Below, in pieces: positions 3,170-57,079 of a stretch of DNA of 64,000 nt (its first letter is position 1; each line of letters starts with the position of its first letter). The DNA is from Owenia fusiformis (Eukaryota): the NCBI GenBank assembly GCA_903813345.2, contig CAIIXF020000001.1, positions 16,430,001-16,494,000 of the forward strand, written 5' to 3'. Made by a program: the position numbers and the translations under genes. The notes beneath the pieces are model-generated. The model ran no database searches. It was not told the DNA's origin and saw only the letters and a program-made list of their open reading frames with translations.

Positions 3170-4108
3170 TTTTTTTTTATAATTTTTTTATTTCAAAGAA
3201 TAAGCATGTTAAAGCAATTGCAAAAAACAATTACAGTACAGTTACATGGTAAACCTACATTTAACAATTTTACAATACAGTACAGTGGTTAAATATTTCG
3301 TCTTAAGAGACGTTATACCATTGGCATTTTTTTTTTATTTAAAGGAAAAAATCATCAGTTTCATTTGTTTAATTTTGTTTCCATGATTTTCCACTTATCG
3401 CCTCTGCCAACCCGTTTGTCCATAATAAAATATTCCTTCACATTACTTATAAAACCTTTAAGTGTTGGTTTTAGCATAGAATATTTGCACAAATAAACAT
3501 ACCTTTTAAAAATACATAGCATATTATTTAAGATGATTGTCTTCTCATTTATACTCTCAGGTCCTATCAATACATTTTGTTTAGTGCATAGCAATGTGAG
3601 CTCTAAAGGAAGCGATTGTTTAATGTCATTTAAAACGACACTTACAATAGTACATTCATACAGAAGATGGCAAATCGTTTCAGGATTTGCTTTACAAAAA
3701 GTGCAAATGTTTGACTCTACGAGTCCACACATTTTTAGGTATGTATTAGTTGCTAAAAATCTGTGAAGGACTTTATAAGTGAAGGATGATAACTTAGGTT
3801 CATAGTTACTCAGTTTGTTAAGTTTATTTGTCTTCTTCCAATCATTTTGATTGAGTGACAAATTCAGATCTTTATTCCATCCTTCTATATATTTTGAATT
3901 CTTTTCTAAATTCTGAACAAATTCCCAGTATATTATTTTACTAATCTTTGACTGAGTAAGGAACTTTTGTACGTGTGCTTTATTTCTTTCATAATCAGTT
4001 ATATTCTGATTATTCTCCATGACGTCTCTTAGCCAAGATTTTGGAATAGTGTTTTTTAGACTCAAATAGTCTAAAAAATTAATATTACTGTGATATTTGT
4101 CATTGAAT
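3170..4108 (-). mobile_element. 5'-truncated L1/Tx1-clade LINE (ORF2 C-terminus with zf-RVT-like Cys/His domain)
   Basis: ORF 4065-3361 contains YKVLHRFLATNTYLKMCG...CTFCKANPETICHLLYEC, and the frame extends upstream as NFLDYLSLKNTIPKSW. An A-rich tail appears as T-runs at about 3167-3190. A possible TSD, TAGTTT, is at 3164 and 4109. Confidence 0.85.
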
Positions 4109-25414: not shown

Positions 25415-25914
25415 NNNNNNNNNNNNNNNNNNNNNNNNNNNNNNNNNNNNNNNNNNNNNNNNNNNNNNNNNNNNNNNNNNNNNNNNNNNNNNNNNNNNNN
25501 NNNNNNNNNNNNNNNNNNNNNNNNNNNNNNNNNNNNNNNNNNNNNNNNNNNNNNNNNNNNNNNNNNNNNNNNNNNNNNNNNNNNNNNNNNNNNNNNNNNN
25601 NNNNNNNNNNNNNNNNNNNNNNNNNNNNNNNNNNNNNNNNNNNNNNNNNNNNNNNNNNNNNNNNNNNNNNNNNNNNNNNNNNNNNNNNNNNNNNNNNNNN
25701 NNNNNNNNNNNNNNNNNNNNNNNNNNNNNNNNNNNNNNNNNNNNNNNNNNNNNNNNNNNNNNNNNNNNNNNNNNNNNNNNNNNNNNNNNNNNNNNNNNNN
25801 NNNNNNNNNNNNNNNNNNNNNNNNNNNNNNNNNNNNNNNNNNNNNNNNNNNNNNNNNNNNNNNNNNNNNNNNNNNNNNNNNNNNNNNNNNNNNNNNNNNN
25901 NNNNNNNNNNNNNN
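25415..25914. other. Assembly gap (500 N)
   Basis: Run of N. Confidence 1.
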
Positions 25915-28173: not shown

Positions 28174-28423
28174 CTGTTATCAAGCTGGCGACGATCAGGG
28201 GAAGAATGATCATCTTCAACATACGAATAAACAATTCCCCTGGCAATCCTATCCACATGATTACGCCATCAGTTGGATTCGCGGACCTCACTCCCAATCC
28301 AAGGAGAAAACCAATCACAATTCCACATAATGTCAATATAAGTAGCAAGTTTTGTTTTAATCCAGATCTCAACGATGCTTTGGTGCATAGGCATCCTGTA
28401 CTGCTGGTGTTTTTCGACTTCAT
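28174..28423 (-). CDS. Paralogous first coding exon of a second SLC1 transporter gene (remaining exons not found in the window)
   Basis: MKSKNTSSTGCLCTKASLRSGLKQNLLLILTLCGIVIGFLLGLGVRSANPTDGVIMWIGLPGELFIRMLKMIILPLIVASLITG ends at the same phase-1 GT donor as exon 1 of the 40684 gene. The protein is nearly identical, and many nucleotide differences are synonymous. Confidence 0.85.
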
Positions 28424-28675: not shown

Positions 28676-30778
28676 TTTACGAGGATAAGATCTCAACATA
28701 TAGTTCGTGAACTTTGTTAATTCATATCCCGGGATTTATATATATGTTGAGATATCCTGTACAGTCACGGTGCGATAGTCAACCTAGCTGAAAAAAGTGG
28801 TGACTATATTGTCCTTACTAGCCGATATATCGTTCAAGCTCGTTAAAATTTGACCGCATCGATCGCTCGACACAAGTATGTTTTCGGTTGACCTCCTTAA
28901 ATGCTGCTGCATGTTGAGACATTTTGGATGATGGGTGCAGGTTTGCCGAAAGCGCAATGGTGGCCACTGGGGCATGCTGTAACATTGGGACTATCAATCT
29001 GATTGTCATGAAATGTAGGAAATTGAATGATATACAATTACAAATGTGTAAAATATCAGGGATATTAAGAATGACAAAGATATGAGTAAAATGGTGTAAG
29101 CGTTTCCAGTTTTACCACCCTGTATATTAATTGAGTAATAAATATAGCATACCTATTTTTGCGGAATAAAAGAACTTGCACAGTTCATCTATTAAGTTAT
29201 GGACAATACAAAAAATAATTAGTTAAAGGTCATTATTGAGTACCTGTATCAACATTTTGCCATCACAAGGCATTCGCTACGCCTCATCGGAAATGTTCTG
29301 GATGATATCCAGCCAAATCGAACACCTTTATGTTGAGGTGATCTGATATTCTCTCAAGGCCTGGTTGTATTTGTAGACATATCATTTTTACTGGTAGTTT
29401 TCCCGTTCTTTGTTTTTCAGGTAATACTGCTGCCTACGGTGTACGAATAATTTTCTGTTTTGGATTCAGCCGATGGAATCCTCGTTTGCTCTTTGGTGAT
29501 CTTGCTCCCATTCTAAGTCACTGCACTTGAATGGTTTATCCCATATGTTTTTCCCATTATGCGTCCTTTTTGTGCAATTAAGAAATGTAAAATGCATGTA
29601 AAACGGAGGTCCTAAATTCTAAACATAATTTAAAATTTCCTTAAATGAAAAACGATCCAGATAGGATCCAAGTAAAGTGCCTTCTTGGAGTGTTCGAATT
29701 TGACAATTTTTGGGCCAAAAATTAAAAATCACTTGAAAAGTGCACAAAATGGAATGGTGAAAAACTGCAAGATTTCCCAGAAAGTTATGCCCAGATTCTG
29801 GGCCTGTCTCATGTCTTTCTCTAATCTTTGAAATATTTAATATGCAAATCATTAGAACTGCAAACATAGTAAGCAAAAACAAGTTCATTGGTTCAGGTGA
29901 ATCTAGTTCAAGTTGAAAGATTTATTGAAAAAGATCTTACCTCTGATGTTTAAAACATTTAAAATGCAAATTATAGAGCTTCTTTAATATCATTTAACAG
30001 CTCAATCACATTTCACATTTCTCAGTAACAATTTGAGTATAATTTTGAGTAATTGTACATCTTTTCCCGACAACCAACAGTCAACTGGATTTTGTACCAC
30101 AATGATTCTTATACCTTTGGCTTAAGCTAATTGGTGGAACTACCTCTCGGGAAATCATCGGGGAGTGTGCAATGACCTGCATTCTTCAGTTCTTGTCAGG
30201 TTTAAAGGGAGAATCTCGCCTAGATTTCTCCCTCAAACAATCAGTGATGTACCATTATAATTGTGCATATATTTTACATACCCAAGATATATCTCGAGAA
30301 CGAATTGAGGGCACAGTATCACAGATACATTGAAAAAATCAACAGAACAACCAACTGTCGGTTAAAACATAATTAGTCAAAAGCATCATACAACCATTTT
30401 AACAATATTATGAAACCTTTGAAAGAAAGAAATATTATAACTACATTTTGTAAGTGTTATGGGGACAATCAATAACAATCAATGTGTTGTGATTCAAAAA
30501 TGAAAAAAATCATTTCGACTTTATTACTAGCCAGTAGAAAAGTAATATCTGTGAACAACCATCAAATTGATCATGTAACGATTTAGTTGAAGCCTCAAAG
30601 TTGGTAAGTTGATAACTTCTTATAATCTTTCCGAGCCAAAACATCAGGGGGTTACTCTGATATTGTGCTTTTATCAAACATTGCACCTTTATACTTTAAG
30701 ATACAAAAACTGAAAACGTTTTTTTATTTTCATGAACTGTCATTATAATCTTTTTAAGTAATCACTGGATCCACTCAT

Positions 30779-33700
30779 CTATATTGGCATCGTGTTAGTG
30801 TCGCATCGAGCGCCCTTTTCAGGATCGTTGTTTCGAGTATCATCAGAACAGTTAGTGTTATCAAGGTCGTTCCGGCAAATTGCATCTACAAGGGCACATC
30901 CTGTAGCGTGACTGAGAACATTAGTAACCGTCCTTAGACGATCACTAAAAAGAAAGGAAAAAAATGATCGATGACACACTTTATTATGAATTACTATTAC
31001 ATTTATATTATTTCATTTTACTTGTATACTATGTTATATAATATATATCTATAAATGGTATGAGTGATTAGTGTTTGTTTACTTTGCACGTATTTTTCGA
31101 ATTATACATAGGGGACAAACAACTTATTGATGCTTCCGCCGAGTGGGAAGACAAAAATTGGCATTTTAAAAACAAGAATATAGTCCAATTATTGTAATTA
31201 TATTAGCATCACCAGTGGTTGGATTTTGGTAAGTACATGAATGAAAAAGTATATGTATGGACCAACTCTAACACATGATTTGATGTGATGGAGGTGCATT
31301 TTCTTTAATAAATTTGACCTTTTTGACCTGCCTCCATCTGTCAAAATCAGAGTGACAATTTTTGACATTTTCTATAGATGGCGTATTCAACAGGTGAGAT
31401 CTTTTGATTTTCATGGGGAGTTTTGGTTCAAACTTTTTTGACTGACAGAGGACATACTGGAGTAGGATGGCATGATAGCAAAACATGTCCACAAATCTTC
31501 ATTTTCTCTGAAAGACATTTTTTTTATTTAGATGGGAATACGCATGGTATAGCATTTGGTTGTGTTAGCCCACAGCTTTAACAGAGGCTACTATTTGGGA
31601 CTAGGTATGTGCATGGGCTTTCAATTATTCTAGTTGAAAGCCCATGCCATGGTATGTGCTACTTAATAAGTGTTTCGTCTTATTCTCCATTATTGCATTC
31701 GAAAACTTACTTGAGCCATTCCAGTGTGAGGATAAGTGCTAAAGAGTCACCCAGGGGCATATTTAGAGCGCTGCCTAGCAAAACCACTATTACTAGACTT
31801 GCACTTGGAACCATCGCAACACCAAACGACGATACAAAGCAAAGACATCTAGAGTACATAACATAAACTAGGAGTAATAAGAAAAGTTTAAAAAGTAGAG
31901 CATTAAAATTCAACACGTTTGAAATTAGAGTTGAATTATTTTATTTCCGGTTGATATAACGTCTTAGCGTTAGTGAAATCGAACGCGATTTCAACTGATT
32001 GGATAACATGATGTGATCATGAGTAGGTTATGTGAGTGGATGCACGATGGGATCGTGTTATTCTGCGAGTAGCAACCGAAGCGTTTATACACAGTTTTAG
32101 TTAATGTTGTAAGTTGTCATACAACCGATTCGAAAATTTAGTTTTATTGTTCGAGGAGGCATACCTTTTTCCCTTTCGAAAGTCACAAAGATTTTGATCT
32201 GGGTTTTAACGGTGTCAGGTCGATAAACTAAAGTTTTTCATATTGAAGTCAACGAACACTTTCTTTAGTGCTATTGACCAAATCAACGTTTTTGAATGAA
32301 GTATACGTGTTCCGACGTTGATGTAACCTGTTCCCAATAATTACTATTTTGGGAAGTATATTTTTCTGCAATTATTACAAAGCATTGCATAGCATAGGAT
32401 GTTAATTAAGTTAATTAAAACATTTAGATATTAGGTTTCTAAGAAGCAATTATGTAATGTGCATATCTTTAAATCTGAAACTCAAGGCATGGCTTTTTAC
32501 TGACAGCGCATTGAATCTAAGTGAATAAATATGTATTTAAGTGCGTTTCTGTCATATTGTTTCAAGGAAGGCACAAAGTTTTGCTTTTAATATCTATTTC
32601 CAGAAGGGCATCAATTTTGGTAATTTAGTTGATACTTGTGTTTCTTTACAACATTTACAGTAGTTGTGTTATATCATTAAGAGAAGTGCTTGTCAACTAT
32701 TTGCATTTTATATTAAACAGATAGTATTTAGATTTACAACGTTTCGAAGAATTGTTCTTTTGCTTTTGTTGCAATACGAGATAAGTTTGTATTAAGGTTT
32801 GCAAAGCATGGTGCTTTCCAGATATTATATTGTTCATCACAATAGTTTTAGAAGATCGTATGATTTTTGTAGTCCGGTCGTGTATTCTTGTGATAATCAC
32901 GGAATTTTTGTATTTTGTGACCAACAATGTCGCATATTACGACAGTTAACTTTCTGAGTTACGTGTTTTGCCAAAAGGCAATGTTATGGTTACAGTGCAA
33001 GTCTGTAGACAGTGATTTAGATTATTGTTATGTATTAATGACAGTGCGTGATTACTGTATTAGATAGTGAGGCATGTTACTCACAGATTTTGCATAGTGC
33101 TAGAAGGCACTATATACATGTATGGTCCTTATACAAGTTTTTTTATATTGCAAGTTGACAGATAGTCACAATTTAGAATTGGTTTATTCCGAAATTTGTG
33201 AATTAATTTGAGATCTTGGACGTGTTAACAAACGTGTAGCCACAATGGTTTTAATGACAGTTGATCATTAGATATGGATGGGTTGTTGGATTTAGATGTT
33301 TTAATTAGGCACACGGTGCCTTATTGATGCCTTGAAGGCAGTTAAACATCGTAAATCAGCAGCGAGGTTGGGAGCCGAGGACGGATGTTGGGTATATTTG
33401 AACCTAAGAGGTTTCTGGCATTAATGCCATCGGCATCGTGGCCGCTATGACATTGGCATCGTGGCCGTCATAGGTACCTGGATGCATCGCGGTCTTTCTT
33501 TTTTTCACTCATTCTTTGTATCAGATGTACTTAAAGATATGCTATACAGATATGTAGGTCAGTATTACATAATCGTGAAATGAATAAGTCTGAATATATC
33601 ATTGGTCAGAAAACACTAAAACCTGCTTGAAACTGTAAAAGTTTATACACTCTATTCCACACTGTATAGAAATAAAATAACTCACACTATAAGTAACTGT

Positions 33701-36700
33701 GAGCCAATCATTGCATAGAAAAAACTTTATGCACTGTTTATAAGATTCACTGAGACAAGTGGGTCAATACTTCGTGTACTTTATGTGCTCTCACACAATT
33801 ACCTTCCCTTGCATAAAGTTGCTGTACAGTTATATGTAACTGAATATTGTATATTCATCACAAACAACATTAGCAAAATGATGGTTCGACGAAATGGACG
33901 GTTCGCTAAAACCAATAAACCAGGCAATTCAGGCCAATTTGGAAAGAAACTAGATAGCGTGATAGCGAATGAGGATAGTAAGTGAAATATATTTTGCAAA
34001 GGTCAGCTTGTAAACTACTGGGTAACCCTAAATGATGAGAAATATGTACAAAATATGTTTTGCATGATTTATTCATATCCCAATGATTTAACTCCTTCAC
34101 TGCAAGGTATATATATACTAATTACGGGACATTTAGGAATTAAGTGACTAGACCAAAGCAAGCATGTTTGAGATTTTAATGATTTTAAATAAATTACCAC
34201 TTCATTATTTGCTTTTAGACATTCAATCAGTTTTATTTGTCCAACAAACCATATTCACAATTGTTCAATCCAACGAAGATTAGGGGATACGCTAAAGAGA
34301 CCCCTCCATTTGTCCGTCCATCCATCCTTCAACTAGACAACAGCAACACCAAAGTGTAGCAAATCCCATCGAACAGCCATGACTGGCAGTTTTTTTTACA
34401 AACAAAGTATACAGCAAAAATGGCAGCCATTTTTCAAAATGGCCACCTTCTACCAAAAGTGTCATTAGACAGTGTGCCAAGCTTATAGTATTCACGCATC
34501 AAATATGAACAAAATCGCTCTACTATTTTTTGAGTTATAGTAAAATACGTTAAAATGACGGCCATTTTTCAAAATGGCTGCCTTCTACCAAAAGTGTCAT
34601 TAGACAGTGTGCCATGCTTATAGTATTCACATACCAAATATGAACAAAATCGCTCCACTACTTTTCGTGTTATAGTAAAATACGTTAAAATGGCCGCCTT
34701 CTACCAGAAGAGTCATTAGACAGTGTGCCATGCTTATAATATTCATATACCAAATATGAACAAAATCGCTCGACTACTTTTCGAGTTACAGCAAAAATCG
34801 TAAAATAACGAGTAAAGGCCGCCATAGTTCAATTCTTTGAAGCAAATGATTCTAAAAGTACAACATATCTTTGAAAAAATATCATTTTGTTAAGTGAAAT
34901 TGTAAAAAATATTTTGCAATGTGTGAAATTGAATTAAAGCACATGATTCAATGAATAGTGGATGCTTCAATTCACTTATGTCTTCTAGTCTAGGCTTTGA
35001 ATTCGGACCACCCTCGTTCACAGTCTAGAATCAGGAAATATGTTAAATTTAATCATCTACAATCAATCTATTTTTACAGGTTTTTATGATTATTTCAGAT
35101 TTTTCTATAGTTTGCGTAACCAGGACGGTGAATTTTCTTCATTTTTCATCAAACATTTCGTCTTACCAATATTTATTATATCTGTCAATTTTATCAAAAT
35201 CGCGCCGCTACGTTTGAAAATAATTCAAATTATGTAGTTTTCCCATTGAGCTCCATTATAAAAATGGAATTTTCAAACTTAATATTTTAAAATTCTACGT
35301 GGTGAAAAGTTGCATATTGAGTAGTTAGTTAATGTTATGGTGTTAAAAATTCAAAACAAAAAGGAATAAAGAAAAAATGCCACAGAGAAGTCTCAATAGA
35401 GTATCTTTAATGCTATTCCAATAAACGCGGGCTGCTGGCTCGAATTTAATCCTATAATATATGTGATATTATGTTGTGTGGTTTGTGGTGAAGACTGTTT
35501 GATTAGGAAATAATGTGCAATTTTGTGGAAAAATCACCTACTTAGCTTTCATTGTTCATTTTACCCTCATTCAAATCAAGATCGGCCAATATTTCAATTA
35601 TTCTCAGTCGTACATGGTTATTGTATATGGTACCAGAATGATTAGTTCTCATATACAAGCTTTCCTATTAATTACAACACTTACTTACCCTAGCACTATT
35701 ATTTGAGTTGCTGTGAATGTAATCCCAATACTCTGTGATACAAACAGCACGGACACACATATAAATATTACAGAGCCATCTTTATTAGTGTTGATGCTGA
35801 GTGGAAGCACAAACTTGCTAACCCGAACGTCTATCCCAACCCCTGCCGTGTTGAGAAATAGATAAGGTAGAGCCGCCATGCTTAAATATAAATGAACAAC
35901 ATTTTAATAACTTTAATTTCAATCACAAAGATTCGAAAGTCTTGACGAGCTATTTTTTAACTTACTTCTGATTAATATAATTAATCAAATATAGCTGATA
36001 GAGATCATATCTGGTTCCCTACCTGGATGCAGGAACACAACCTGCCAAGACCGAAGGGAAAACTGCAAACATGAACATGAACGGGTTCTTACGGCAAGCT
36101 ATGAAGTATATTCCCGGGAGAACGATGAAGCTGTGGATGCAGAGACCAATGGTGGCGGTCAGGGAGAAATATCCAAGGGATCGGAATGCTGAATAAAGAT
36201 CTGTTATCTTTAATACAGCATAGGCAACTAGACTACCAAGCCCTATGGGAGAGTACCTACATATTAAATCAATGAAACAATGAAACAATGAAATGTAGAA
36301 TAATGCAGAATACATGAAGAACTGAATACATAAATAAAACTTGTAATTAATGTTGTAAGATCACACGTTTTATTGGATTAATGCGAGTAACATCCGAAAC
36401 CTACCATATAATTGCAGTCATCATTTTAAAGACGATGTCATTTACTCCACTGAAGAAGTTTAACACAGGCTTGGCGGAATCCCCCGTTGCACTTGCGGCA
36501 ATTCCAAATACTATACTGAATATGATGATACCTAAATGATAAAAGATCACGTGATTTATCATCCGGAATAATATGGCCGAATCGCCTTTAATCGCAGATT
36601 GAACCAACTCACTTGATAAGTGTCAACTGTAAGGAAAAGTGAAAATATTTTCGAAATCCATCGTTTGTTCGTGTTACAAATGCAGCGTGGCCGACAATAT

Positions 36701-39700
36701 TAAACGGTATTTTGACTCCATTGATTAATAACATACAGGGTGTCCAATAAATAAGGTGAAAGATATTGTAACTTTCTTAATATTGCACCAATCTTGATGA
36801 AATTTTCAGAGTTGGTAGCCCAAACCTTTTTACCTTTATTCTGTGAATTTAAAGCGTCTTCTATTTGATTGGCCAGAGTTGTGGTTGCTATAGCAACCGA
36901 AACAACAAAAAGGCGGGGCAAGTTTGTTTACGTCACAACTTTCCAAAACATATTTATTCTTTCTGATAGCTTTATTCATACTCCCAGGTCTATTACTATC
37001 ACAAGTACAATATAAAAACAGTCCTAAAGTCCAATTATTATGAAAATAAGCTATTCAACATAATGTCCATCTCTAGCTATACACTTCTTATGCCTATTCA
37101 CCCACTCTCTAAACACACCTTCAAACCCATTCTTGCCCATTTCCTAAAGTCCTGCTGAGACATGTGATCTGAGTTCATCAGTGCTTCCAAATTTATTTCA
37201 CGCTTGAGGTCTGCATATAAGTAAAAGTCATTGGGTGCAAGGTCTGGGGAAAATGGAGGGTGTGCAAGTAGGGGTAGCCCCAGTGCCCTAATAGTTTCAC
37301 TAGTGAGCATAGCTGTGTGTGAACTCAGATCACATGTCTCAGCAAGACTTCAGGAAATGGGTAAGAATGAGTTTGAAAGTGTGTTTAGAGAGTGGGTGGA
37401 TAGGCATAAGAAGTGTAAAGCTAGAGATGGACATTATGTTGAATAGCTTATTTTTATAACAATGGGAGTTTAAGACTGTTTTTATATTGTATTTGTGATA
37501 GTAATAGACCTGGGAGTATGAATAAAGCTATCAGAAAGAATAAATATATTTTGGAAAGTTGTGACGTAAATAAACTTGCCCCGCCTTTTTGTTGTTTCGG
37601 TTGCTATAGCAACAACAACTCTGGCCAATCAAATAGAAGACGCTTTAAATTCACAGAATAAAGGTAAATAGGTTTGGGCTACAAACTCTGAAAATTTCAT
37701 CAAGATTGGTGCAATATTAATAAAGTTACAATATCTTTCACCTTATTTATTGGACACCCTGTACATTGGCATTAGTATACATTATATTGGCTCATGATAT
37801 TCACCCAATGCATTCATTCCATCCCGATAATCTCTCTCCTTTACGATCTCAGTTATGTTCAACGCACTGTTTATGATCACTTCTTTTCTCGACGTATGGA
37901 TCTGAAAGTATTACAATTTTACAATGACTGATAATGATCATTATGACAGATCCCACTTAGAAAAGTGAATTAATCAACAACATGTATCTGATTAGATTTA
38001 ACATGTGTCTGATTAGATTTAATATTTTCCCATCGATCATGACACCACCAAAAAGCTGGTTAAATGACCAAACAGGCAAAACGTTTTTGACATGTTATAG
38101 ATGACATGACATGACTTTAAATAACTTATGACAAAAGAGATTTAGTTTTCCTATTTTAATATAGACGTTATAAATATTCTATCATGACACATTGAAAATC
38201 TTCATTATAGATTATACTTACAGACTCCATGCATGCCTGAACTATATTCTCGGGTACCATATTTCTGAGTAAATCCGCAAATAAATCGGAGTAACTTATA
38301 ATTGGCTCGCCAGTGTTGTAACCTGGTGGCGCATTTTGGTTGAATTTCTCCCCTGGTCGCATTACAAGTCCAAGAACAATTCCAATGATAATACCTATTG
38401 CTTGTGTTAAGCATATATAGCCAATAGTAACACCGCCAATCTTACCATTAGAACGGGGGTCCAGCGAGGAAACACCTAAAACATACATGTACCAAAGTAC
38501 GTATAGGCATAGGCGGTATGAAAATATATCTACAGCGTTGAGATGGGATCCCTTCCCAACCCAGCTATAATTGTCTACAAACACCAACCAATAAACCTTT
38601 TCTGAGTTTCTAGTAAAAACCACCATGAAGAGAAACAACGTATTCGAACACAGATCTAGAAATATTACAACTGAAGACGCATGCGCAGCATCAGCGCATA
38701 CACTAACAGATCGATTCTTTTCTAATGACCTCAACATTCACCCAGAATGCCCAAAAACTAATCAGTTCTAAATGTTTGTACTTAAAAACATCCCTGAAAA
38801 TTTTAGATTAACCCGTGAGACGGTCTGGCTGGAAACCTGTAGACAAGCCTCGAGAGACAAGATATTAGGACGAAACTCCTAAATTCAGCCGCCTTAAGAT
38901 TTACGCAGAATGTCCATAAAACAAATAGCTCTAAGCCTTCACACATAACATCCCTGGAAATTTCAGATGGATCCCTCAGGTGGAAACGTATCGAAACATT
39001 GATATCATAGATTGAGTTGGCTTGATCGAGAAGAGGCGACTTGCTGGACCAGGCCCAGACCCAGACACAAGAAACGGAGACTAAATATTACACAAGCTTC
39101 AAAAACACGGATGGACGAGTAAGGATACTTATATTGAACTATTATTTAAGTTGCAAAGAATTTAAAGATCTGGTGAAAATTAAATTGAAACTTCGAAATC
39201 GACATCAACACAGGAGGGATCAAACAGCACTCTCCGGTAAAATCCAACGATCTGGTAAAAATCGCACTCTCGGCTGACGAGATCTCGGTCACCCTTAGCT
39301 GACGTAACCTTATCTCAAGTTTCTTCAAAAACTGGGACAAACTTGAGATGTCAATTTGTGTGCAATCCACGAACAACCGCGGCATTATGTAAGTATTCTA
39401 AAAGACGCAGATGATGTGAACACACATTTAGCAAGCTGAATATACTATCAAGAATAAGCTAGATCGATGGACTTACGAGATAGAGCCTTCGTTTGGAAAT
39501 GATTTGCCAAACTACACGATTTTTTACCCGATCGTGCGGATTTTACCGGAGAGTGCGGTTTTGTCCCTACCTGTGGCCAAGCAAAATCAAAACCACGTTT
39601 TAACAAGGGCAAATCCCCTCGAATAACTAATCTTATTTAGCACCTTTATCTTGCTTCAAACAACACCTGCTGCCTTTGTCAAGATGCCCAATTCAAGGTT

Positions 39701-40684
39701 GGTACATTTGAATTGAGTTTCTCGCTACTTCAAAATTAGGAATTTTGCTCATGATTAAGTACATCCCTTAACTAATGATTGACTTAGGACAAAACCACAC
39801 ATTGTTTTATTTGGGAAAAGTATACAAAGTATCATCTCCATTCGGTTTTGTTTTGTGAAGATCGTATTATTTTAGCATAAAGAATCCTTTATCATTCTAT
39901 ATTGGAAATTTAAAAGCATAGGTGCATGTACTTACCTGTCTGATAATGCACCGAGGGCGGAGTTAGTAACTAAGTTAGTCAGCTGCCTGGTTACTGAGTT
40001 ACTTACTCAGTAAATAAGTATCAAAGTTAGCCAGGTAGTTAAAAAAAGTTAGCTACTAAGTGACGAAGTCAGTTATAAAAGCTAGTTATAAAGTTAAGTC
40101 AGTCAGCTATTACTATTTTAGATACAAGGTTAGTGACTTAGTTGGTAACTAAGTTAGTTAAAAAGCTATTTAAAAAGCTACTTAATAACTTCTGAGGTAG
40201 CGTAGCTATTGACCCAAACAATTCTTTTAGACCTCTTTGAAAACCTAATTTTTGAAATCCCGAATGTCAATTAGAGTCAACGACAGGTCAACTATCAAAG
40301 AGATGACAAAGTGACTCCTGGCAACGTTTAGATAATGTTCATTGATGTCATAACATGTTCCTTTGTATGATCCGAATTAAATAGAGAATAAAAAACTTTC
40401 GAAGGTCATTGAGGGCCAAAAGACCCTGTATGGGTACCTGTGATTAAGCTGGCAACGATCAGAGGAAGAATGATCATCTTCAGCATACGGATAAACAATT
40501 CCCCTGGCAATCCTATCCACATAATAACGCCATCAGATGGATTCGCGGACCTCACTCCCAATCCAAGGAAAAAACCAATCACAATTCCACATAATGTCAA
40601 TATAAGTAGCAAGTTTTGTTTTAATCCAGATGTCATCGATGCTTTGGTGCACAAGCATCCTCTGCCGCAGTTTTTCGGCTTCAT
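30779..40684 (-). CDS. SLC1 family (dicarboxylate/amino acid:cation symporter, excitatory amino acid transporter-like), 8 coding exons, 484 aa
   Basis: Exons on minus: 40684-40438, 38475-38222, 37901-37805, 36531-36405, 36256-36023, 35880-35689, 31848-31711, 30944-30779. All introns are GT-AG with consistent phases; total 1455 nt. The translation has SLC1 hallmarks GELFIRMLKMIILPLIVASLITG, DLLRNMVPENIVQAC, DGMNALGIIIFSIVFG, WYSPIG, GIDVRVSKFVLPL, NKDG and DRLRTVTNV. The specific SLC1A orthologue cannot be assigned by eye. Confidence 0.95.
34419..34822 (+). repeat. Three ~116-135-bp tandem units in SLC1 intron 6, possibly within a Helentron/HINE-like element
   Basis: Unit core CCTTCTACCAAAAGTGTCATTAGACAGTGTGCCA...CAAATATGAACAAAATCGCTC at about 34446, 34581 and 34697. 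A short TCC(A/G) microsatellite lies at about 34313-34327. Confidence 0.75.
36736..37761. mobile_element. Fold-back mariner-derived element (TA TSD) in SLC1 intron 3
   Basis: TA-CAGGGTGTCCAATAAATAAGG...CCTTATTTATTGGACACCCTG-TA with inverted arms of about 440 bp. The centre encodes HPPFSPDLAPNDFYLY (mariner YSPDLAP motif). The arms carry the transposase C-terminus (...WVDRHKKCKARDGHYVE* on plus, mirrored on minus). Confidence 0.9.
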
Positions 40685-44083: not shown

Positions 44084-47000
44084 TTAACCAAGGATGAGTT
44101 CGTCTGGATCCTTGATGGGTTTCCATGATGGTGAGGAAGGTGTTGACGATGTGCCCTTGGGTGCTGTCGTTACCGATGTTTGCCTAATTTGTGACATCTT
44201 GGGTTTAAAAGAATACACAAACACTCTGTCTTTGCTATAACTTGGAACAAAAAGTTCTTTGTAACCATCTTTGTCAATGTCTGCTATTGCTATACCACCA
44301 ATCGTACCATCTCCATCTTCAAGAAATGTCTTTGTCTCGTACTCCCAATTATTGAGGTCAAGGCTCTTGGGGTAAAGTATATGGGCAGACCCATCATCGT
44401 CACCAGAGACAAGAATCAGTGGTTTTCCACTCTCATTCCTAAATAAATTGAAAAATGCATAGCGGTGACAAAACAATTTTCAAAATAAGCAAATTATTAG
44501 GATTGCATATTCCTCAGCTAACATTTTGATTCGACTTTTACAATTGTCTGAGAGGCATATACCAACAACAGTGATTCGAGTTTGTCAAAATAAGAAAGAC
44601 ATTTACTTACTTTGTGTTTGGAAAGAAAGCCTTTGATGATCCCGGCGATCCTTTCCCAGGGCCCCAGCTTTTGGAACTGAATCCCGTCGCCAACGTATGC
44701 ATCACATACTTTCCTGACCTATATAGCAAATTGTATTATTTAGTTGATCGGATACAGCAAGTCTGTATCTTTATCTACTTAAATGACTTAGGGAACTTAT
44801 GAATCATCAAGTATGACTATTATTTTATGTGCCTTATTTGTAAAATATTTGTTCCTGGCCACCGAGTTGTAAAAATTTCAGAAAAAGAGTTGACCAGCTT
44901 GGTCGCGCTTCATGATATGGTATATTTCTGATCTTTCAATCTCGAAAATAGACAAATGTCCGTTGCATATATTTTCAGATTTTACCATTTAATCATTTTC
45001 GACTGGTAAAAAAACTGATAGACATTACCGTTTTCAGCAAAAAAAATCCCATGGTTGGTTGTTGAATTGAAACTTGAAAATTGAAACTCTGTCGACCAGA
45101 AACAAGAATATACATATCATACATAAACCAACCTAAAATCAATTGGCACTTCGAAGGCTAAAACCTTTCCGTTTTCATAAGCATTGAGTGAGACAAGGAG
45201 GTCCAGGCGACCATCCCTGTTAAGATCCATAACTTGAACATCAAACATCTGACCTAATTTTGTTGCGATCACATTTTGTTTCACCTAGAAATAAATAATT
45301 CAATTCATCAATTTATGTTAGTAGTTGTACTAGATAGTTGTACTAGGTATAGTATTCCGCTCAGCATGTGGCTTCGGATAGTACATTTCGGGAAATAATT
45401 TACACTTTTGCCCTCAATGGCAGTCACTATTTGCATAATATGGTCCTTTGAACATTTATGCAATATTACAAGTGTACATTAGCCTACCATCACTCATGAT
45501 TGACAGAGTATATCATGGGTAATTTTCTAGGTAATTTTGAATTAAGGCTTTCAGTACCTGAACGAAGAAAGATGCAAGTGATCAGAACTAAACCCAAATA
45601 CAATATAAGTGTGTATACCTTGGATTTTTCCCATTCACCAGACGGCGACCAATAAATAGTTAAGTTCTCTGAGAAATATGAGCTGGTAATGATGACGTCA
45701 TACATAACGCCATCTGCAGTCATCTCTGCTAAAGTGAACATGTTATCGGGCCCAGATGCTACGATATGTTCCGTCCAAGGTCTTGAGAAGTTGTAAGGTG
45801 AATCACGGGGATTTTCCAACCAAAGTAGGTTTCCCTCAGTTGAACCTTTAAAAGAATAATACATAGAAATAGCTGGAATAATACTACAGATAACTATAGT
45901 TTGACCCGACCTTTGGTGAATCTGACCTGGATGGCACTACAGGATACACTACAGCACTACAGCGGTGCAAGAAGGGCCGATGAGTAAGATGATCAACCCA
46001 CTGTCCCACTTTTTACTGCTATCATCTCCTGACAGAAAAACATCACTTGGGCAACATTTACTGCCATTGATTTTGCGTCATTTAGGCGCCAGATTCAGAT
46101 TTCCCCATTCCTGAAGCTTTTAAAACCTAGTTATCATATGAAAAGAAGCGGCTTGCGCCACTGAGACCCTTCTGGATCCGTGACTATATAAAAACTAGTT
46201 AAGTAGGTGAGAAGTGTTTGCGCGTTTGTTTGTACCATGGTTACAATTCCGGGTATTGCCTTATCTTGTTTCTAATGAATGGAAACCTGCAAAATATATT
46301 TACAGGCCGTAAAAGTTGGCTGGCCCAACTGCCCCCCCCCCTTTAATTTAACAACCAGCCTGTAAAAGGACTTTGAAACCATGAGAGTATGTTTCACTGT
46401 TTGCCTGTTTTTGGACATTTACATCTAAATACACAATATTTGATGTTTGATTCCTTAAGAATAGTAAACATAGACCCATTAAACATATCTTAAACATAAG
46501 TGTAGATTGGATAATTGTCAAAGCTAGAGCAGTTTTAGTAAAATACATTTACTCTTTAAGCTTTAAATTAATTACCAAATATTGGTTTCCTTCCTCTACA
46601 AGTGACAGCATCGGGGAGACCATCTTTGTTCATATCTTTCCACAGAACACGATGGAAGAACCAGTCCTTGTCAGCACCACCTTTAGGTGTGGATATGTCG
46701 AACGGCCCGACACTATTACGAAGTATAGTCCCAGGGTTCAAGTCAAATATATTCACAGCACCATCCTGTTTTCCGGGAACTAAGAATCCACCCGGTACAG
46801 CAATAGAATCTTTTCCAAACCCAGGTACTATAAAGTTAGGAAAACATTTTTAAATATTTAATGAAACATATTTCAAATGACATTAGTCATTTAAAGCAGT
46901 AAACGGAATTTTGTAGAGCATTTATAATTTTTGTACTTATATAAAGAATAAGTACTTCGATAAAGACCTCTATAAGTTCTACATCATATTCCAATATTGG

Positions 47001-47447
47001 TGGTAAGCTACAACTTATGGCAGATAGGGTAGGGATACAAGACTAGATATACTCACTTGGAACGGGTTCGATTTCATTCGGCCATGTTACTTTATCCGTC
47101 AATGTCTGGACATTGATGTTAGTAATGTTTTCTGAAATAACCTTATCAATATCGGTAACGTAGTAAATGTGATCGCTGTTCCATGGAATCGGATCAAAGC
47201 TGGAGATGATCAAAGTGAAGTTGCCGTCATTCTGATCTTTGTTCAGGTTATCATAAGCTGCTATGAATGACGGATACGTCACTTTAAATTCTGAGATCAG
47301 CCTTGGTGAGATCTCCGGTTCGGCAAGAGCTGTGGCGCTACAAACTAGAGAAAGGCATATTGCCATTTCAAATACGCGCATATGTTGAGACATCCTTAGA
47401 TGATTCGCGCTTTTTCGTCTACTCATCTTTAATGATTTCTTTTTCAT
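44084..47447 (-). CDS. Secreted FG-GAP/VCBS-repeat (beta-propeller) protein, 6 coding exons, about 472-494 aa
   Basis: Exons on minus: 47447 (or ATG at 47381)-47057, 46827-46576, 45845-45619, 45284-45133, 44718-44611, 44438-44084, all GT-AG and phase-consistent. It has a signal-peptide-like MRVFEMAICLSLVCSATALA, repeated Ca-binding-type motifs DMNKDGLPD, DLNRDGRLD and DIDKDGYKE, and a Ser/Thr/Pro-rich tail. The start codon is uncertain. Confidence 0.9.
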
Positions 47448-49226
47448 TTGACACTGTGTTGTCGGGATCTAGTAACGAAATTTATATTGTCCTTATCAAT
47501 GTAAATGCATATGTAAGTTCCACACTTTCACATGTTGGTACACCCTTCTGAATAAGATAAGAGATAAGATTGATGATTTGGTAAAACAAAACAAGGCATG
47601 CGACGTGTGTATTGCAGAATGATCTAAATTCAATTATGAACATTCGCTTATCCAAAGACAAAATGGGAATTTTTATAGTGTTATATCAAATCGTGATGAC
47701 TTGTATAGATGGCATAATTGCTAACTATTGTTGGTCTATCTTCATGGATATGGCAGTACTTGATATCGACTCAATACTATCACTTAGACTTCGAAATCTC
47801 ACTTTACAGAGGTTTTATTCAGATCTTTTAATCTCCCAGATTTAAGGCATTTTTAAAAAATCACTAAACTGACACATGATCAATTGCTTTAATTTGGCGC
47901 TAGTTAATTTTTGAGTAAAATATGGATATTGGAAGGCTAGCTAACTATTGAAAGAATTCTCAATGATATTTTTTTTAATTGGCAGAGACTTAATTTGGTG
48001 GATTGTATCAATCCGCCAAATCAGCCAAATTAAAACGGCTGTCAAATTAAAGCAATTTACAGCATTGAAATCGTCCTGTGTTACACGAGTTGTGTGTCGC
48101 GAATTGGTAGCTTATAACTCTATCGTCTGCACAAGAATAGATGTCTCTCAATCTGTGAGTCGCTGTAAAATATTGAATAGCACCAAGGGTACTTCTATTT
48201 TGCACCCCGTTGCATTTTTGGATTGAATATTACATCGATTTATGTTTACGGTATTTGTTCACCTTTACGCAATTGTGTACATTTGTACATTTGTGTTTTT
48301 GTCAATGTCAGTTAAAAATCAATCAATTAATAATATAGGATATTGAAAACCTTTGTCAAATCGAAGATAACCTGAACCATTGAGTATGTTTAGCCGTGGT
48401 GTGTGGTGGTACTAACGAAACTATTATCCTAATATGTAGTGGTTCAGTTCTCTATTCAGTCTGCTCTATTGTATGGCTATAGTTGGTATTTTGTTTTAGG
48501 ACTTGGAGTAAATGGGCAAGGATTAGCGATATAAGTCTTATACATAGCCTAAATGTATCTTATTGATAGCAGTATAATATCTTAAAATAAATTGAAAGTG
48601 AAGACCTATTTCTTCACCACCTAACCCAATTTTTGATCAGTAAAATAATTATATTTGTTCCACGTGTGAACCAACTTTTAATTGTTTGTACTTGTTTATT
48701 TGTATAATCTCTGATGGTGATCAAAAGCGTTTCTGATAATAAAAGGTATTCTTGTCGTTTGTCTTTTTGGTATCCAAAACACCACGTTCATGTAGTCCTT
48801 TATAAAAGATCAAAATACTACACCGAAGAAAATAATCCCCTATTTACTTAAAATAATCGTTTCACATACTAATCTGATTAATGCATATAATTGTTTTCTG
48901 CACACTTTAAAACTGACAAATGTCATCTATACGTTTCGAGACAAAAGAAAAGTTTGATTAAAACAGTTGGTCAATATCAAGGCTTATTCCTCACAGATTA
49001 TAGTATAGGGCATTCGACGGCGGATTGATTTGGCTAATGTTTACGAATCTGGTTATTCAATGGCCGTAGTATAGCAACAGTACACAATGTTGTAAACAGT
49101 TGATATAGCCTTTGTACCCGATAGTCCAATTACACTTTATTAAATCTCTACACGCGAACGGCTGTGAGACTTTTAGGATTAACTTTTACTTGTCAGTTTT
49201 GATACATCTTATTATAGATATTAAAA

Positions 49227-55200: not shown

Positions 55201-57079
55201 ATCGATTATTTTAATAATGTGATGTACTTTTTCTGTCGGTGTATCTTTGTAAAGAATATTAGCTCGATAAGTTTTGTGATTTATCATATCATTGTTTTTG
55301 TGGTTGCTATGGTGGATATCACAAAGAAATACCAATGATTGTGTTAAGCCAGACTGTTCCCCTGTAGTGTTTTATGGCTAATGTAGCTCCAAATGCAATA
55401 TTAAAAAAATATGATAACTAAACTAATTTAGGATAAAAGTGAAGTTCAGAAATAGTTTGGCATACAAGAGAAAAAATTAATATTCAAATCAACTGAACTG
55501 TCTGGCTGCTTTACAAACGTGGGTCATACACACTCAATTCAAACATGATTAAAACAATTTCATTTCATTACAATATGGAAATAGTATACTGGTAAATATA
55601 TTTTACAATGTTTGTGAGTATTTAGATGTTTTCAAATGTTGTAAACAATGCTTACGCTTCACGTGGCACAATTGTTTTAAAATAACGTCTTCGACGTCTC
55701 AACATATGCGACACCGTTCGGAAAACGGAATGTTACTACAATAAATATATATAACTACTATAAATCAGGAATAATAAAAGTAACGCTCAAATGAGCAAAA
55801 CCTTTAATCAAATAAATAATTCAAAAATTGCAAGTGCACGAACTGATCATTTTTCATTTACTAGTAGTTATTAAGTTCTTCTTTAAACCCATCTATTTGT
55901 AATTAATACCAAATGCTTTTGTAACCCATAACAGTATAACTGCTTGTCTCATAATCCCCGCATAATCCTAACCTTTCTGCGAATCCTCTAGGAGAGACAC
56001 CAACATCTCATATGCATTTGCTAATGTACATGGGGTCTCTTCTAGAAGATGTCAACCCTGTTGGACTTCCAATGCATGTCTGCTTGATTAACCTAGTTGC
56101 ATCAAAATTGCTTTATTATTAGGCGAGGCGGGGCAAAAATCTGAAGAGAAGACAGAGGCAGCAAAAGAAGAACCAGTAAAAATAGAATCAGATGAGACTG
56201 ATAATTCACAAACTGTAGCAGCTGATTCAGAAGAAACTCCTAAATCAGAGGAAACAGTTGAATCAGATGTAAAAACTGAAACTGCTGAATCAGCAGCTGA
56301 AAATGTTGATACAGCTGAGAAATCTGAATCAGATCAAATTACTGAACCAGAAAAAACTGAATCTGCTGAGCCAGAAACTGCTCAAAACGAACCAACTGAA
56401 TCAGAAACTGCTCAAACTGAAGCAGTTGAACCAGAAACTGCTCAAACTGAAAATGTAGTAGCTGAAACTGCACAAAATGATGCAGCAGCAGAAACAACTG
56501 AAACTAATCCATCTGATTCACAAGCTACTGAAACACAACCCATTGAAACACAAGATAGTAAGTCACGCCTAGAAACTGAAGACAGCAACAGAGAAATATT
56601 GTATACTTTTGCATGATTCAATCTTAAAATGGCATGTGTTTCCCGTTTTGTATATATATCATCCTTTCAGTTTCATAAAATTATTTCTTTGCATGGTTAT
56701 TCTAAAGTAAAATATGTGTTCTCCATAATCAAGTTTATATGATTTTTCTCATGAGTTCATTTAAATACCAACGTTCATAATAATTATAAATATAAAGGGT
56801 AATGTTTTCTTTGCTTAAGACTAAAATTATTTAGTACTGAAATGCATACTAAGTTGTTATCATCATAAGGAACGACAGTGTATATAACCATGAACATGAT
56901 AATTGCAATCTGACTTGCCCGACTATGAACTACATGCCAAATTCCCTGTTTACGGTGCCCATGATCAATGTAATATTGTTTTTTCAGATGAAAATAAAAC
57001 AGAGGAAACCCCAGCTACAGAAGGAGAAACCTCAGAGGAAACAAAAGCTGAGGAAACAGAAGAAAAGAAAGAAGAATAG
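49227..57079 (+). CDS. Acidic low-complexity protein with N-terminal myristoylation/palmitoylation motif (MARCKS/BASP1/GAP-43-like in composition), up to 292 aa
   Basis: Exons on plus: 49227-49356 (MGCGGSKSTGTENQQKKADPAP...), 52661-52792 (EENNEEKKDEEKKVETEE...), 54314-54403 (AQDSMNPFEEADKP...), 56123-56557 (EPETAQTE-type 10-aa repeats), 56988-57079 (...EETEEKKEE*). All introns are phase 1 and GT-AG. An acceptor at 49217 just before the ATG implies an upstream UTR exon. Inclusion of the 54314 exon is less certain. Confidence 0.85.
53490..53620 (+). repeat. Local tandem duplication (period about 85 bp)
   Basis: AACTAGCGAGATTTGCATGTTTC.AACTGAAACCAGAAAATAA occurs twice. Confidence 0.8.
54462..54589 (+). 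repeat. Local tandem duplication (period about 70 bp)
   Basis: AGAATTTG.AATTGCTTTCCCATAATGAGAA...CTT.AAATTGTGTGA occurs twice. Confidence 0.8.

Follow-up and report, generated by a model that had tools for sequence, protein, structure and literature searches.

An SLC1 transporter gene of Owenia fusiformis from an animal clade that has jointly lost the canonical cation-coupling residues

To our knowledge, the characterised animal carriers of the SLC1 family are all Na+-dependent, and the NMDG motif and the aspartate of the Na1 site are regarded as near-invariant. Studies have shown what these and neighbouring residues do. [quoted passage not shown] E374 of EAAT3 is the proton carrier, and E374 and Y373 are both required for K+ coupling (PMC10160106). 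GltPh D405N can bind aspartate without Na+ (10.1101/2021.11.29.470416). EAAT3 D455N/S and EAAT2 Y403F carry out exchange without net transport, and T370S reduces the affinity for glutamate but not for aspartate (PMC3958442). An uncoupled ancestral prokaryotic homolog is functional, and Na+ dependence was lost first allosterically, with the ligands following later (PMC12668577). In this study, we analysed a 64,000-nucleotide stretch of the Owenia fusiformis genome (assembly GCA_903813345.2, contig CAIIXF020000001.1, positions 16,430,001 to 16,494,000, hereafter the window), which contains an SLC1 gene with changes at all of these coupling positions. The interesting unit is the clade to which this gene belongs and not the single gene.

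The gene is encoded on the minus strand at 40684-30779 by 8 exons (1455 nt), which give an open protein of 484 amino acids with 0 internal stops. GT donors and AG acceptors are present at all 7 introns, and the protein is letter-for-letter identical to the NCBI Owenia fusiformis protein model P0001. Residues 27-451 matched Pfam PF00375 (SDF) with 292 bits against a curated cut-off of 27.9, which places the protein in SLC1 / DAACS, and six of the eight exons matched this domain individually. The AlphaFold2 model, built from a 40-row alignment, had a predicted local distance difference test (pLDDT) value of 83.2. Its top Foldseek matches were human EAAT2, EAAT3, EAAT1 and ASCT2 (E 1e-27), and it has the EAAT/GltPh fold with hairpin 1 (HP1), a broken transmembrane segment 7 (TM7), HP2 and TM8.

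A public contig of run X1, from another haplotype, covers 35574-36115; its 6 letter differences and single gap all fall within intron 5, and its exon 6 is identical. A contig of run X2 had 17 differences; of the 16 listed, 15 are intronic and one lies in exon 5. The 3 differences of other runs that are listed within exons of this gene were all synonymous. The H442 codon is covered by no listed contig and is supported by the same Ser-His pair in three Owenia paralogs. The ratio of non-synonymous to synonymous substitution (dN/dS, Nei-Gojobori) against the closest paralog was 0.26 across 479 codons; restricted to the core of exons 2-8 (370 codons), it was 0.225. The gene is under purifying selection and is neither a pseudogene nor, because the contig from the other haplotype matches exon 6 exactly, a sequencing error. 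A preliminary description of this locus had allowed that the substitutions might be sequencing errors or that dN/dS might be relaxed; the former is contradicted by exon 6 and the Ser-His pairs, and the latter by values of 0.23-0.26. Its claim of an intact gene stood, and the re-spliced model placed NKDG, F359/I360 and the His codon where it had put them.

Residues were mapped by alignment to human EAAT2 (7xr4) and with the GltPh/EAAT equivalence table of PMC3958442. K353 aligns with the Met of NMDG, F359/I360 with the Tyr-Glu pair and H442 with the Na1 Asp of TM8, which bears out the three substitutions first described. The substrate ligands of TM8 (D444/R447/T448/N451 in canonical EAATs) are all kept as D431 (D394), R434 (R397), T435 (T398) and N438 (N401), including the D394/R397 pair for acidic substrates that had been reported as retained. 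S277/S278 (here S319/S320), T92 (here T106), N310, D312 and G313 are also kept. The canonical NMDGT motif reads NKDGS, the Y373-E374 proton/K+ pair reads F359-I360, and the Na1 aspartate D455 is H442; three of the four Na3 ligands (T101/T102/N366/D368) are kept, and T102 is Q107. Site by site, the changes are S93 to Q107 at Na3 (TM3), G306 to S348 in the Na1 backbone, T308 to N350 and M311 to K353 at Na2, T314 to S356 and Y317/Q318 (EAAT3 Y373/E374) to F359/I360 in TM7, and further G359 to S401, D390 to E427 and G404/D405 to S441/H442. Those at S93, G306, T308, T314, G359 and G404 had gone unmentioned before. The serine run of HP1 (PASSMAALP, straddling the exon 5/6 junction) is indeed shorter than in EAAT1/3, but it is not specially reduced: EAAT2 itself reads TASSAG, S319/S320 are kept, and we dismissed it as a special feature.

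The closest solved relative, by sequence (E 4.9e-91) and by fold, is human EAAT2/GLT-1 (SLC1A2). The protein shares with EAAT1-5/EAAT2 the A-S-S of HP1, the D/R/T/N substrate set of TM8 and a Ser-type HP2 tip region, whereas NMDGT to NKDGS, YE to FI, Na1 Asp to His and Na3 Thr to Gln set it apart from EAAT1-5, with an identity of about 37-38%. ASCT1/2 (SLC1A4/5), which are Na+-dependent neutral exchangers, also have F at Y373 and no Glu at 374 (FQ in ASCT), but they replace R397, keep NMDG and D405 and are distant on the tree; the ASCT change of R447 to Thr/Cys is absent here, where R434 is kept. Nearest on the unrooted tree (support of the joint branch: SH-like approximate likelihood ratio test, SH-aLRT, 95; FastTree 0.92) is a group of arthropod proteins from Pieris, Armadillidium, Bemisia, a tick and a centipede. 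E374 and Y373 are each found in 0/6 of them, but D405, S/T93, N310 and G306 are each kept in 6/6; the Owenia gene, which has also lost D405 and S93, lies outside this group on a separate branch. We presume that the arthropod group is that of Drosophila EAAT2, and dEAAT2 itself was outside the sequence set. dEAAT2 is an aspartate/taurine carrier (PMC3737229). The mosquito dicarboxylate transporter CuqDCT (PMC3737229) is another invertebrate SLC1 protein with an altered TM8 and no K+ countertransport, but it alters D444 and keeps D455, while the Owenia gene alters the D455 position and keeps that of D444; the D444 to Asn/Ser change of dicarboxylate-type proteins (CuqDCT, DctA) is thus absent, D431 being kept. 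The uncoupled ancestor AncInt and the H+-coupled GltP are a precedent in which Na+ coupling was dropped, then the ligands, with aspartate binding kept (Reddy et al. 2025, PMC12668577). They are, however, prokaryotic and an independent lineage, and their signature of hydrophobic T92, M311L, D405N and S279E is not found here (T106, K353, H442, M321). Judged by its residues, the Owenia protein is an SLC1 member that lacks the defining residues of canonical EAATs, of ASCTs, of bacterial H+-coupled GltP and of CuqDCT.

The homolog set comprised 289 proteins, 258 of which had at least 85% core coverage, and 176 remained after rows more than 85% identical were dropped. The gene falls in a clade of 37 of these 176 non-redundant homologs, with a FastTree support of 1.00 that stayed 1.00 without the motif columns; IQ-TREE under LG+C20 gave it an SH-aLRT of 100 in a quick search on an 80-row subset picked after the first tree, with a long-branch warning for two rows. 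In the 80-row tree, the gene joins two further Owenia loci, C209 and P0122 (97), and next a Lingula protein together with one unnamed row (97). A unique one-off gene was therefore dismissed. Organism names are carried by 25 of the 37 rows. Together with the extra rows of the 80-row tree, the named members come from seven phyla: Annelida, Mollusca (gastropods and bivalves), Brachiopoda, Nemertea, Platyhelminthes (cestodes and Schistosoma), Seison and Hemichordata (Saccoglossus and Ptychodera). Among the matches listed, the clade held no row named as vertebrate, arthropod, nematode or cnidarian, which is not evidence of absence. Because of this distribution, we infer from the unrooted tree that the clade originated before the protostome-deuterostome split. 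A profile search contributed few additional members, and exon 6, used as the query against longer proteins, retrieved the gene itself alone (1/10 candidates).

The clade apparently has no name in the literature. No paper naming or assaying it was found in the mainly non-subscription literature, taken without supplements, and the accessible parts of PMC2873418, PMC5237233, PMC9993606 and 10.1101/2023.08.18.553804 hold nothing on it. Supplementary trees outside that search, for example those of PMC5055395 (planarian EAAT) and 10.64898/2026.09.05.749567 (metazoan EAAT), may hold members.

A residue census compared 36 clade rows (the fragment P0176, which lacks TM8, was excluded) with 133 outside rows. 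The substrate site is conserved: D394 is kept in 36/36 clade rows against 122/128 outside, R397 in 36/36 against 111/130 and N401 in 31/36 against 127/130, with T/S398 kept in 32/36 and S/T278 in 31/36 clade rows. The coupling residues D405, M311, E374, T/S93, G306, N310 and D312 are each present in 83-95% of the outside rows. In the clade, D405 is kept in 0/36 (122/130 outside), with His in 22 rows and Gln in 6; M311 in 0/36 (122/133); E374 in 0/36, mostly Ile (109/132); T/S93 in 0/35, mostly Asn (123/132); G306 in 4/34; N310 in 13/36 (124/133); and D312 in 18/36 (114/133). Since many members lack N310 and D312, Na3 is not essential to the clade. Among the 390 core columns, 104 reach a conservation of 80% or more in the outside rows. 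Inside the clade, 40 of these still do and 15 are lost. Seven columns are lost completely, namely S93, M311, E374, G404, D405, the T352 position and one HP2a threonine. Because these are mostly coupling positions, the divergence of the clade is concentrated on the cation machinery, and the clade signature is the joint loss of D405, E374, M311 and S/T93. It is not the trio K311/I318/H405 that had been put forward as a possible clade mark, which occurs exactly in 2/176 rows, both from Owenia. Position 311 is R in 16, A in 10 and K in 5 of the 37 rows, and K is also found in 4 rows outside; Lys311 was dismissed as a conserved signature and is a local state. The hemichordate-type members P0126, P0127, P0131, P0250 and P0264 have A/G at EAAT3 R445, and several of them have Lys or Arg at the HP1 R276 position, a GltPh-like placement of the charge.

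We believe, with a probability of roughly 0.55, that the protein is a K+-independent carrier of acidic amino acids whose Na+ coupling is lost or much reduced and which works as an exchanger or facilitated carrier. It would be an elevator-type SLC1 carrier belonging to an old bilaterian lineage that gave up its cation coupling but retained the substrate site. The substrate would be bound by D431/R434/T435/N438/S320 as in EAATs. With E374 gone, the proton carrier and the K+ return step would both be missing, and we predict with high confidence that K+ antiport and the E374 proton step are absent; G359, beside E374, may have changed to Ser along with this loss. The Na+ sites would be filled or removed by the His at Na1, by the amide residue that replaces S93 in Na3 and by the Lys in place of M311 beside Na2, and therefore the high-affinity state would be reached with little or no Na+. 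The substrate would then be equilibrated by exchange or facilitated transport and not steeply pumped. An acidic substrate with a bias for aspartate over glutamate is predicted with moderate confidence. A role in moving amino acids for nutrition or metabolism is more likely than one in synaptic clearance, a task that four NMDG paralogs of Owenia could cover. The preliminary proposal of altered or reduced Na+/H+/K+ coupling survives here as the best inference, with the substrate residues kept and the coupling residues replaced, but without its residue trio, its reduced HP1 and its channel role. In the mussel's digestive gland, a Na+-independent, Cl--dependent uptake of a glutamate analogue by an unidentified carrier has been reported (PMC8310042), and any link to the clade is pure speculation.

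Several points weigh against a carrier freed of Na+. The tree lacks a root, and long branches lead to several clade rows. The Na+ stoichiometry of GltTk is unaltered by M311 mutation (PMC8431971), residues away from the ion sites can switch coupling (PMC12668577), and EAAT3 D455A/E is inactive, not uncoupled (PMC3958442); the last result makes single mutants poor predictors for a protein with many compensating changes. T92, N310 and D312 are all kept in this copy, as in 9/36 clade rows, and Na3 may still bind one Na+. No transport assay for any clade member was found in the literature searched. In two RNA runs sampled at about 6% of reads, the depth was 0-0.23 over 35738-36178 and 0 over 40148-40588, and the splice joints of the gene were absent among the 15 joints listed of 68. 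The same runs gave a weak stranded signal (depth 3-4) over 30446-30886. These RNA runs and two contig sets, four of the 16 runs listed, were compared with the locus; the contig sets contain intron sequence and therefore confirm letters, not transcripts. Some clade members sit on short contigs that hold the whole coding sequence (for example P0012, 493 amino acids on 1588 nt), which suggests spliced clade transcripts in other species.

We also considered a Na+-coupled concentrative carrier of lower stoichiometry (1-2 Na+, no K+), in which His442 and Lys353 act as built-in cations at Na1 and Na2 and Na3 still binds Na+. Na2 is replaced by Lys or Arg in ApcT and CaiT, which have a different fold. 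Since the sulfur of M311 coordinates Na2 (PMC8431971), a Lys at this position would aim its charge at Na2, and this copy retains the Na3 residues T106, N352 and D354; but S93 is Q here and N/H in most of the clade, and N310 and D312 are each absent in half or more of it. K/R311 is found in 20/36 clade rows and His405 in 22/36, and where His405 is missing (14 rows), 13 rows have K/R311 and one has K310 (raw table 7,13 / 15,1, p = 0.0004, kinship ignored). The kinship-aware test, however, leaves 2 independent pairs on supported branches (p = 1), and thus the earlier idea of built-in charges keeps its raw pattern and has no phylogenetic power, a lead and not a result. Covariation of K/R311 with loss of T308 (kept in 9/20 against 12/16, p = 0.096) was unsupported. 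We regard this lower-stoichiometry carrier as the main rival of our reading, though rather unlikely. A proton-coupled symporter, an animal parallel to bacterial H+-coupled GltP in which the titratable His442 replaces Na1, seems less likely again. His405 occurs in none of the outside rows and is buried at the Na1 position, but Q, N, V, S, I or T replaces it in 14/36 clade rows (5 changes on the tree), the bacterial H+ signature described above (PMC12668577) is absent, and E374 is gone.

That the protein works chiefly as a substrate-gated anion channel or as a sensor, and transports little, is a very improbable reading. Two residues of the protein, S79 and K342, presumably correspond to EAAT1 S103 and R388. 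These EAAT anion-conductance residues are kept or conservatively changed (PMC5472439), but ordinary EAATs keep them too, and nothing positive speaks for a channel-dominant mode; the channel role suggested in the preliminary description found no favour in the analysis. The least probable reading is a decaying duplicate, a pseudogene or an assembly error. The locus is a recent tandem duplicate with a split neighbour, and its RNA depth was low, but the open frame, the canonical splice sites, the dN/dS, the match of the other haplotype, the confident fold, the synonymous nature of the 3 listed exonic differences and the recurrence of the same changes across seven phyla led us to dismiss it.

The genome search returned 39 matches, which are eight SLC1 loci and one orphan exon. 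Four loci are of the NMDG/YE type (C4, C1 at 60.18 Mb, C1 at 4.98 Mb, and C8), and four are divergent, namely this gene (NKDG), C209 (NRDG), C3 (KKDG, = P0122) and C6 (NADG), all with Ser-His in TM8. The unplaced contig C209 (G000:C209:1344-6103) holds exons 2-8 without exon 1, and the orphan exon 1 in the window lies near an assembly gap at 25415-25914. Joined, they give an open protein of 492 amino acids, 81% identical to the product of this gene. C209 6471-6694 matches window positions 29125-28918 at 72%, and both stretches lie downstream of an exon 8. The orphan exon 1 and C209 sequences, when compared, had no overlap. They are probably one tandem paralog split by the assembly. Exon 4 differs from C209 1978-2104 by 1 non-synonymous and 0 synonymous changes, and because dS is 0.2-1.0 in the other exons, recent gene conversion is likely. 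In C3, where N310 is also lost, the last exon is duplicated with a stray exon 4 piece between (L040 9935-10000, L041 463-513 and 1433-1585; G000:C3, about 29.798 Mb), which may be a partial duplication or an assembly artefact. The NMDG-type C8 paralog (L048 2388-2516, G000:C8 about 36.558 Mb; P0180) has Thr at D394/D444, recalling the dicarboxylate-type change of CuqDCT, and a shortened HP2; its model has 775 amino acids with a long C-terminal tail.

Most reads mapped to the gene fall on two repeats, a high-copy tandem repeat element in intron 6 (34416-34832) and a long inverted-repeat element in intron 3 (36620-37800) resembling a miniature inverted-repeat transposable element. Upstream, at 44084-47468 (-), lies a gene of several exons whose start is signal-like and which carries FG-GAP repeats (Pfam FG-GAP_3); a second NKDG match within it (46619-46630) is unrelated to the transporter. 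The window also holds a retroelement remnant with a zf-RVT domain at 3361-4107 (-) and, at 56092-56616 (+), an acidic, low-complexity Glu/Thr/Ala-rich open frame of 174 amino acids, probably an exon of another gene.

Table 1. Positions in the window of the SLC1 gene, its altered codons and the orphan exon.
Feature	Position	Strand	Evidence
Exon 1 (ATG, TM1-TM2)	40438..40684	-	splice model, Pfam SDF match
Exon 2 (TM3; T106 kept, Q107 replaces Na3 ligand S93)	38222..38475	-	splice model, Pfam, alignment
Exon 3 (extracellular loop)	37805..37901	-	splice model; alone without Pfam match
Exon 4 (TM4c-TM5)	36405..36531	-	splice model, paralog comparison
Exon 5 (TM6, start of HP1)	36023..36256	-	splice model, Pfam
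Exon 6 (HP1b, TM7; NKDGS motif, F359/I360)	35689..35880	-	splice model, EAAT2 alignment, haplotype match
NKDG	35786-35775	-	splice model
K353 codon, replaces GltPh M311 / EAAT3 M367 (Na2 ligand, allosteric coupler)	35781..35783	-	alignment
F359-I360 codons, replace EAAT3 Y373-E374	35760..35765	-	alignment
Exon 7 (HP2 with S401 for G359; TM8a)	31711..31848	-	splice model, Pfam
Exon 8 (TM8: D431, R434, T435, N438 kept; S441-H442 for G404-D405; stop codon)	30779..30944	-	
H442 codon, replaces Na1 ligand D405 / D455	30908..30910	-	splice model, alignment
Orphan exon 1 of tandem paralog (90% amino acid identity)	28174..28423	-	genome search, paralog alignment

Taken at its broadest, the clade could be a second ancient branch of animal SLC1, older than the protostome-deuterostome split and unseen in vertebrates, which would carry acidic amino acids without Na+/H+/K+ coupling or ion drive and use His405 and Lys/Arg311 as interchangeable built-in cations in empty Na1 and Na2 sites. 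We hold this view tentatively, at somewhat less than even odds. If true, the clade would give the reconstructed uncoupled ancestor a naturally occurring eukaryotic equivalent. Its members amount to ready natural tests of which elements of the coupling machinery a carrier can do without, and of whether side chains can stand in for Na+ at Na1 and Na2. Automatic annotation as 'excitatory amino acid transporter-like' may cause its members to be misread as neuronal or glial markers in expression studies of molluscs, annelids and flatworms. Members are also present in parasitic flatworms and farmed bivalves, whose carriers for amino acid uptake are poorly identified.

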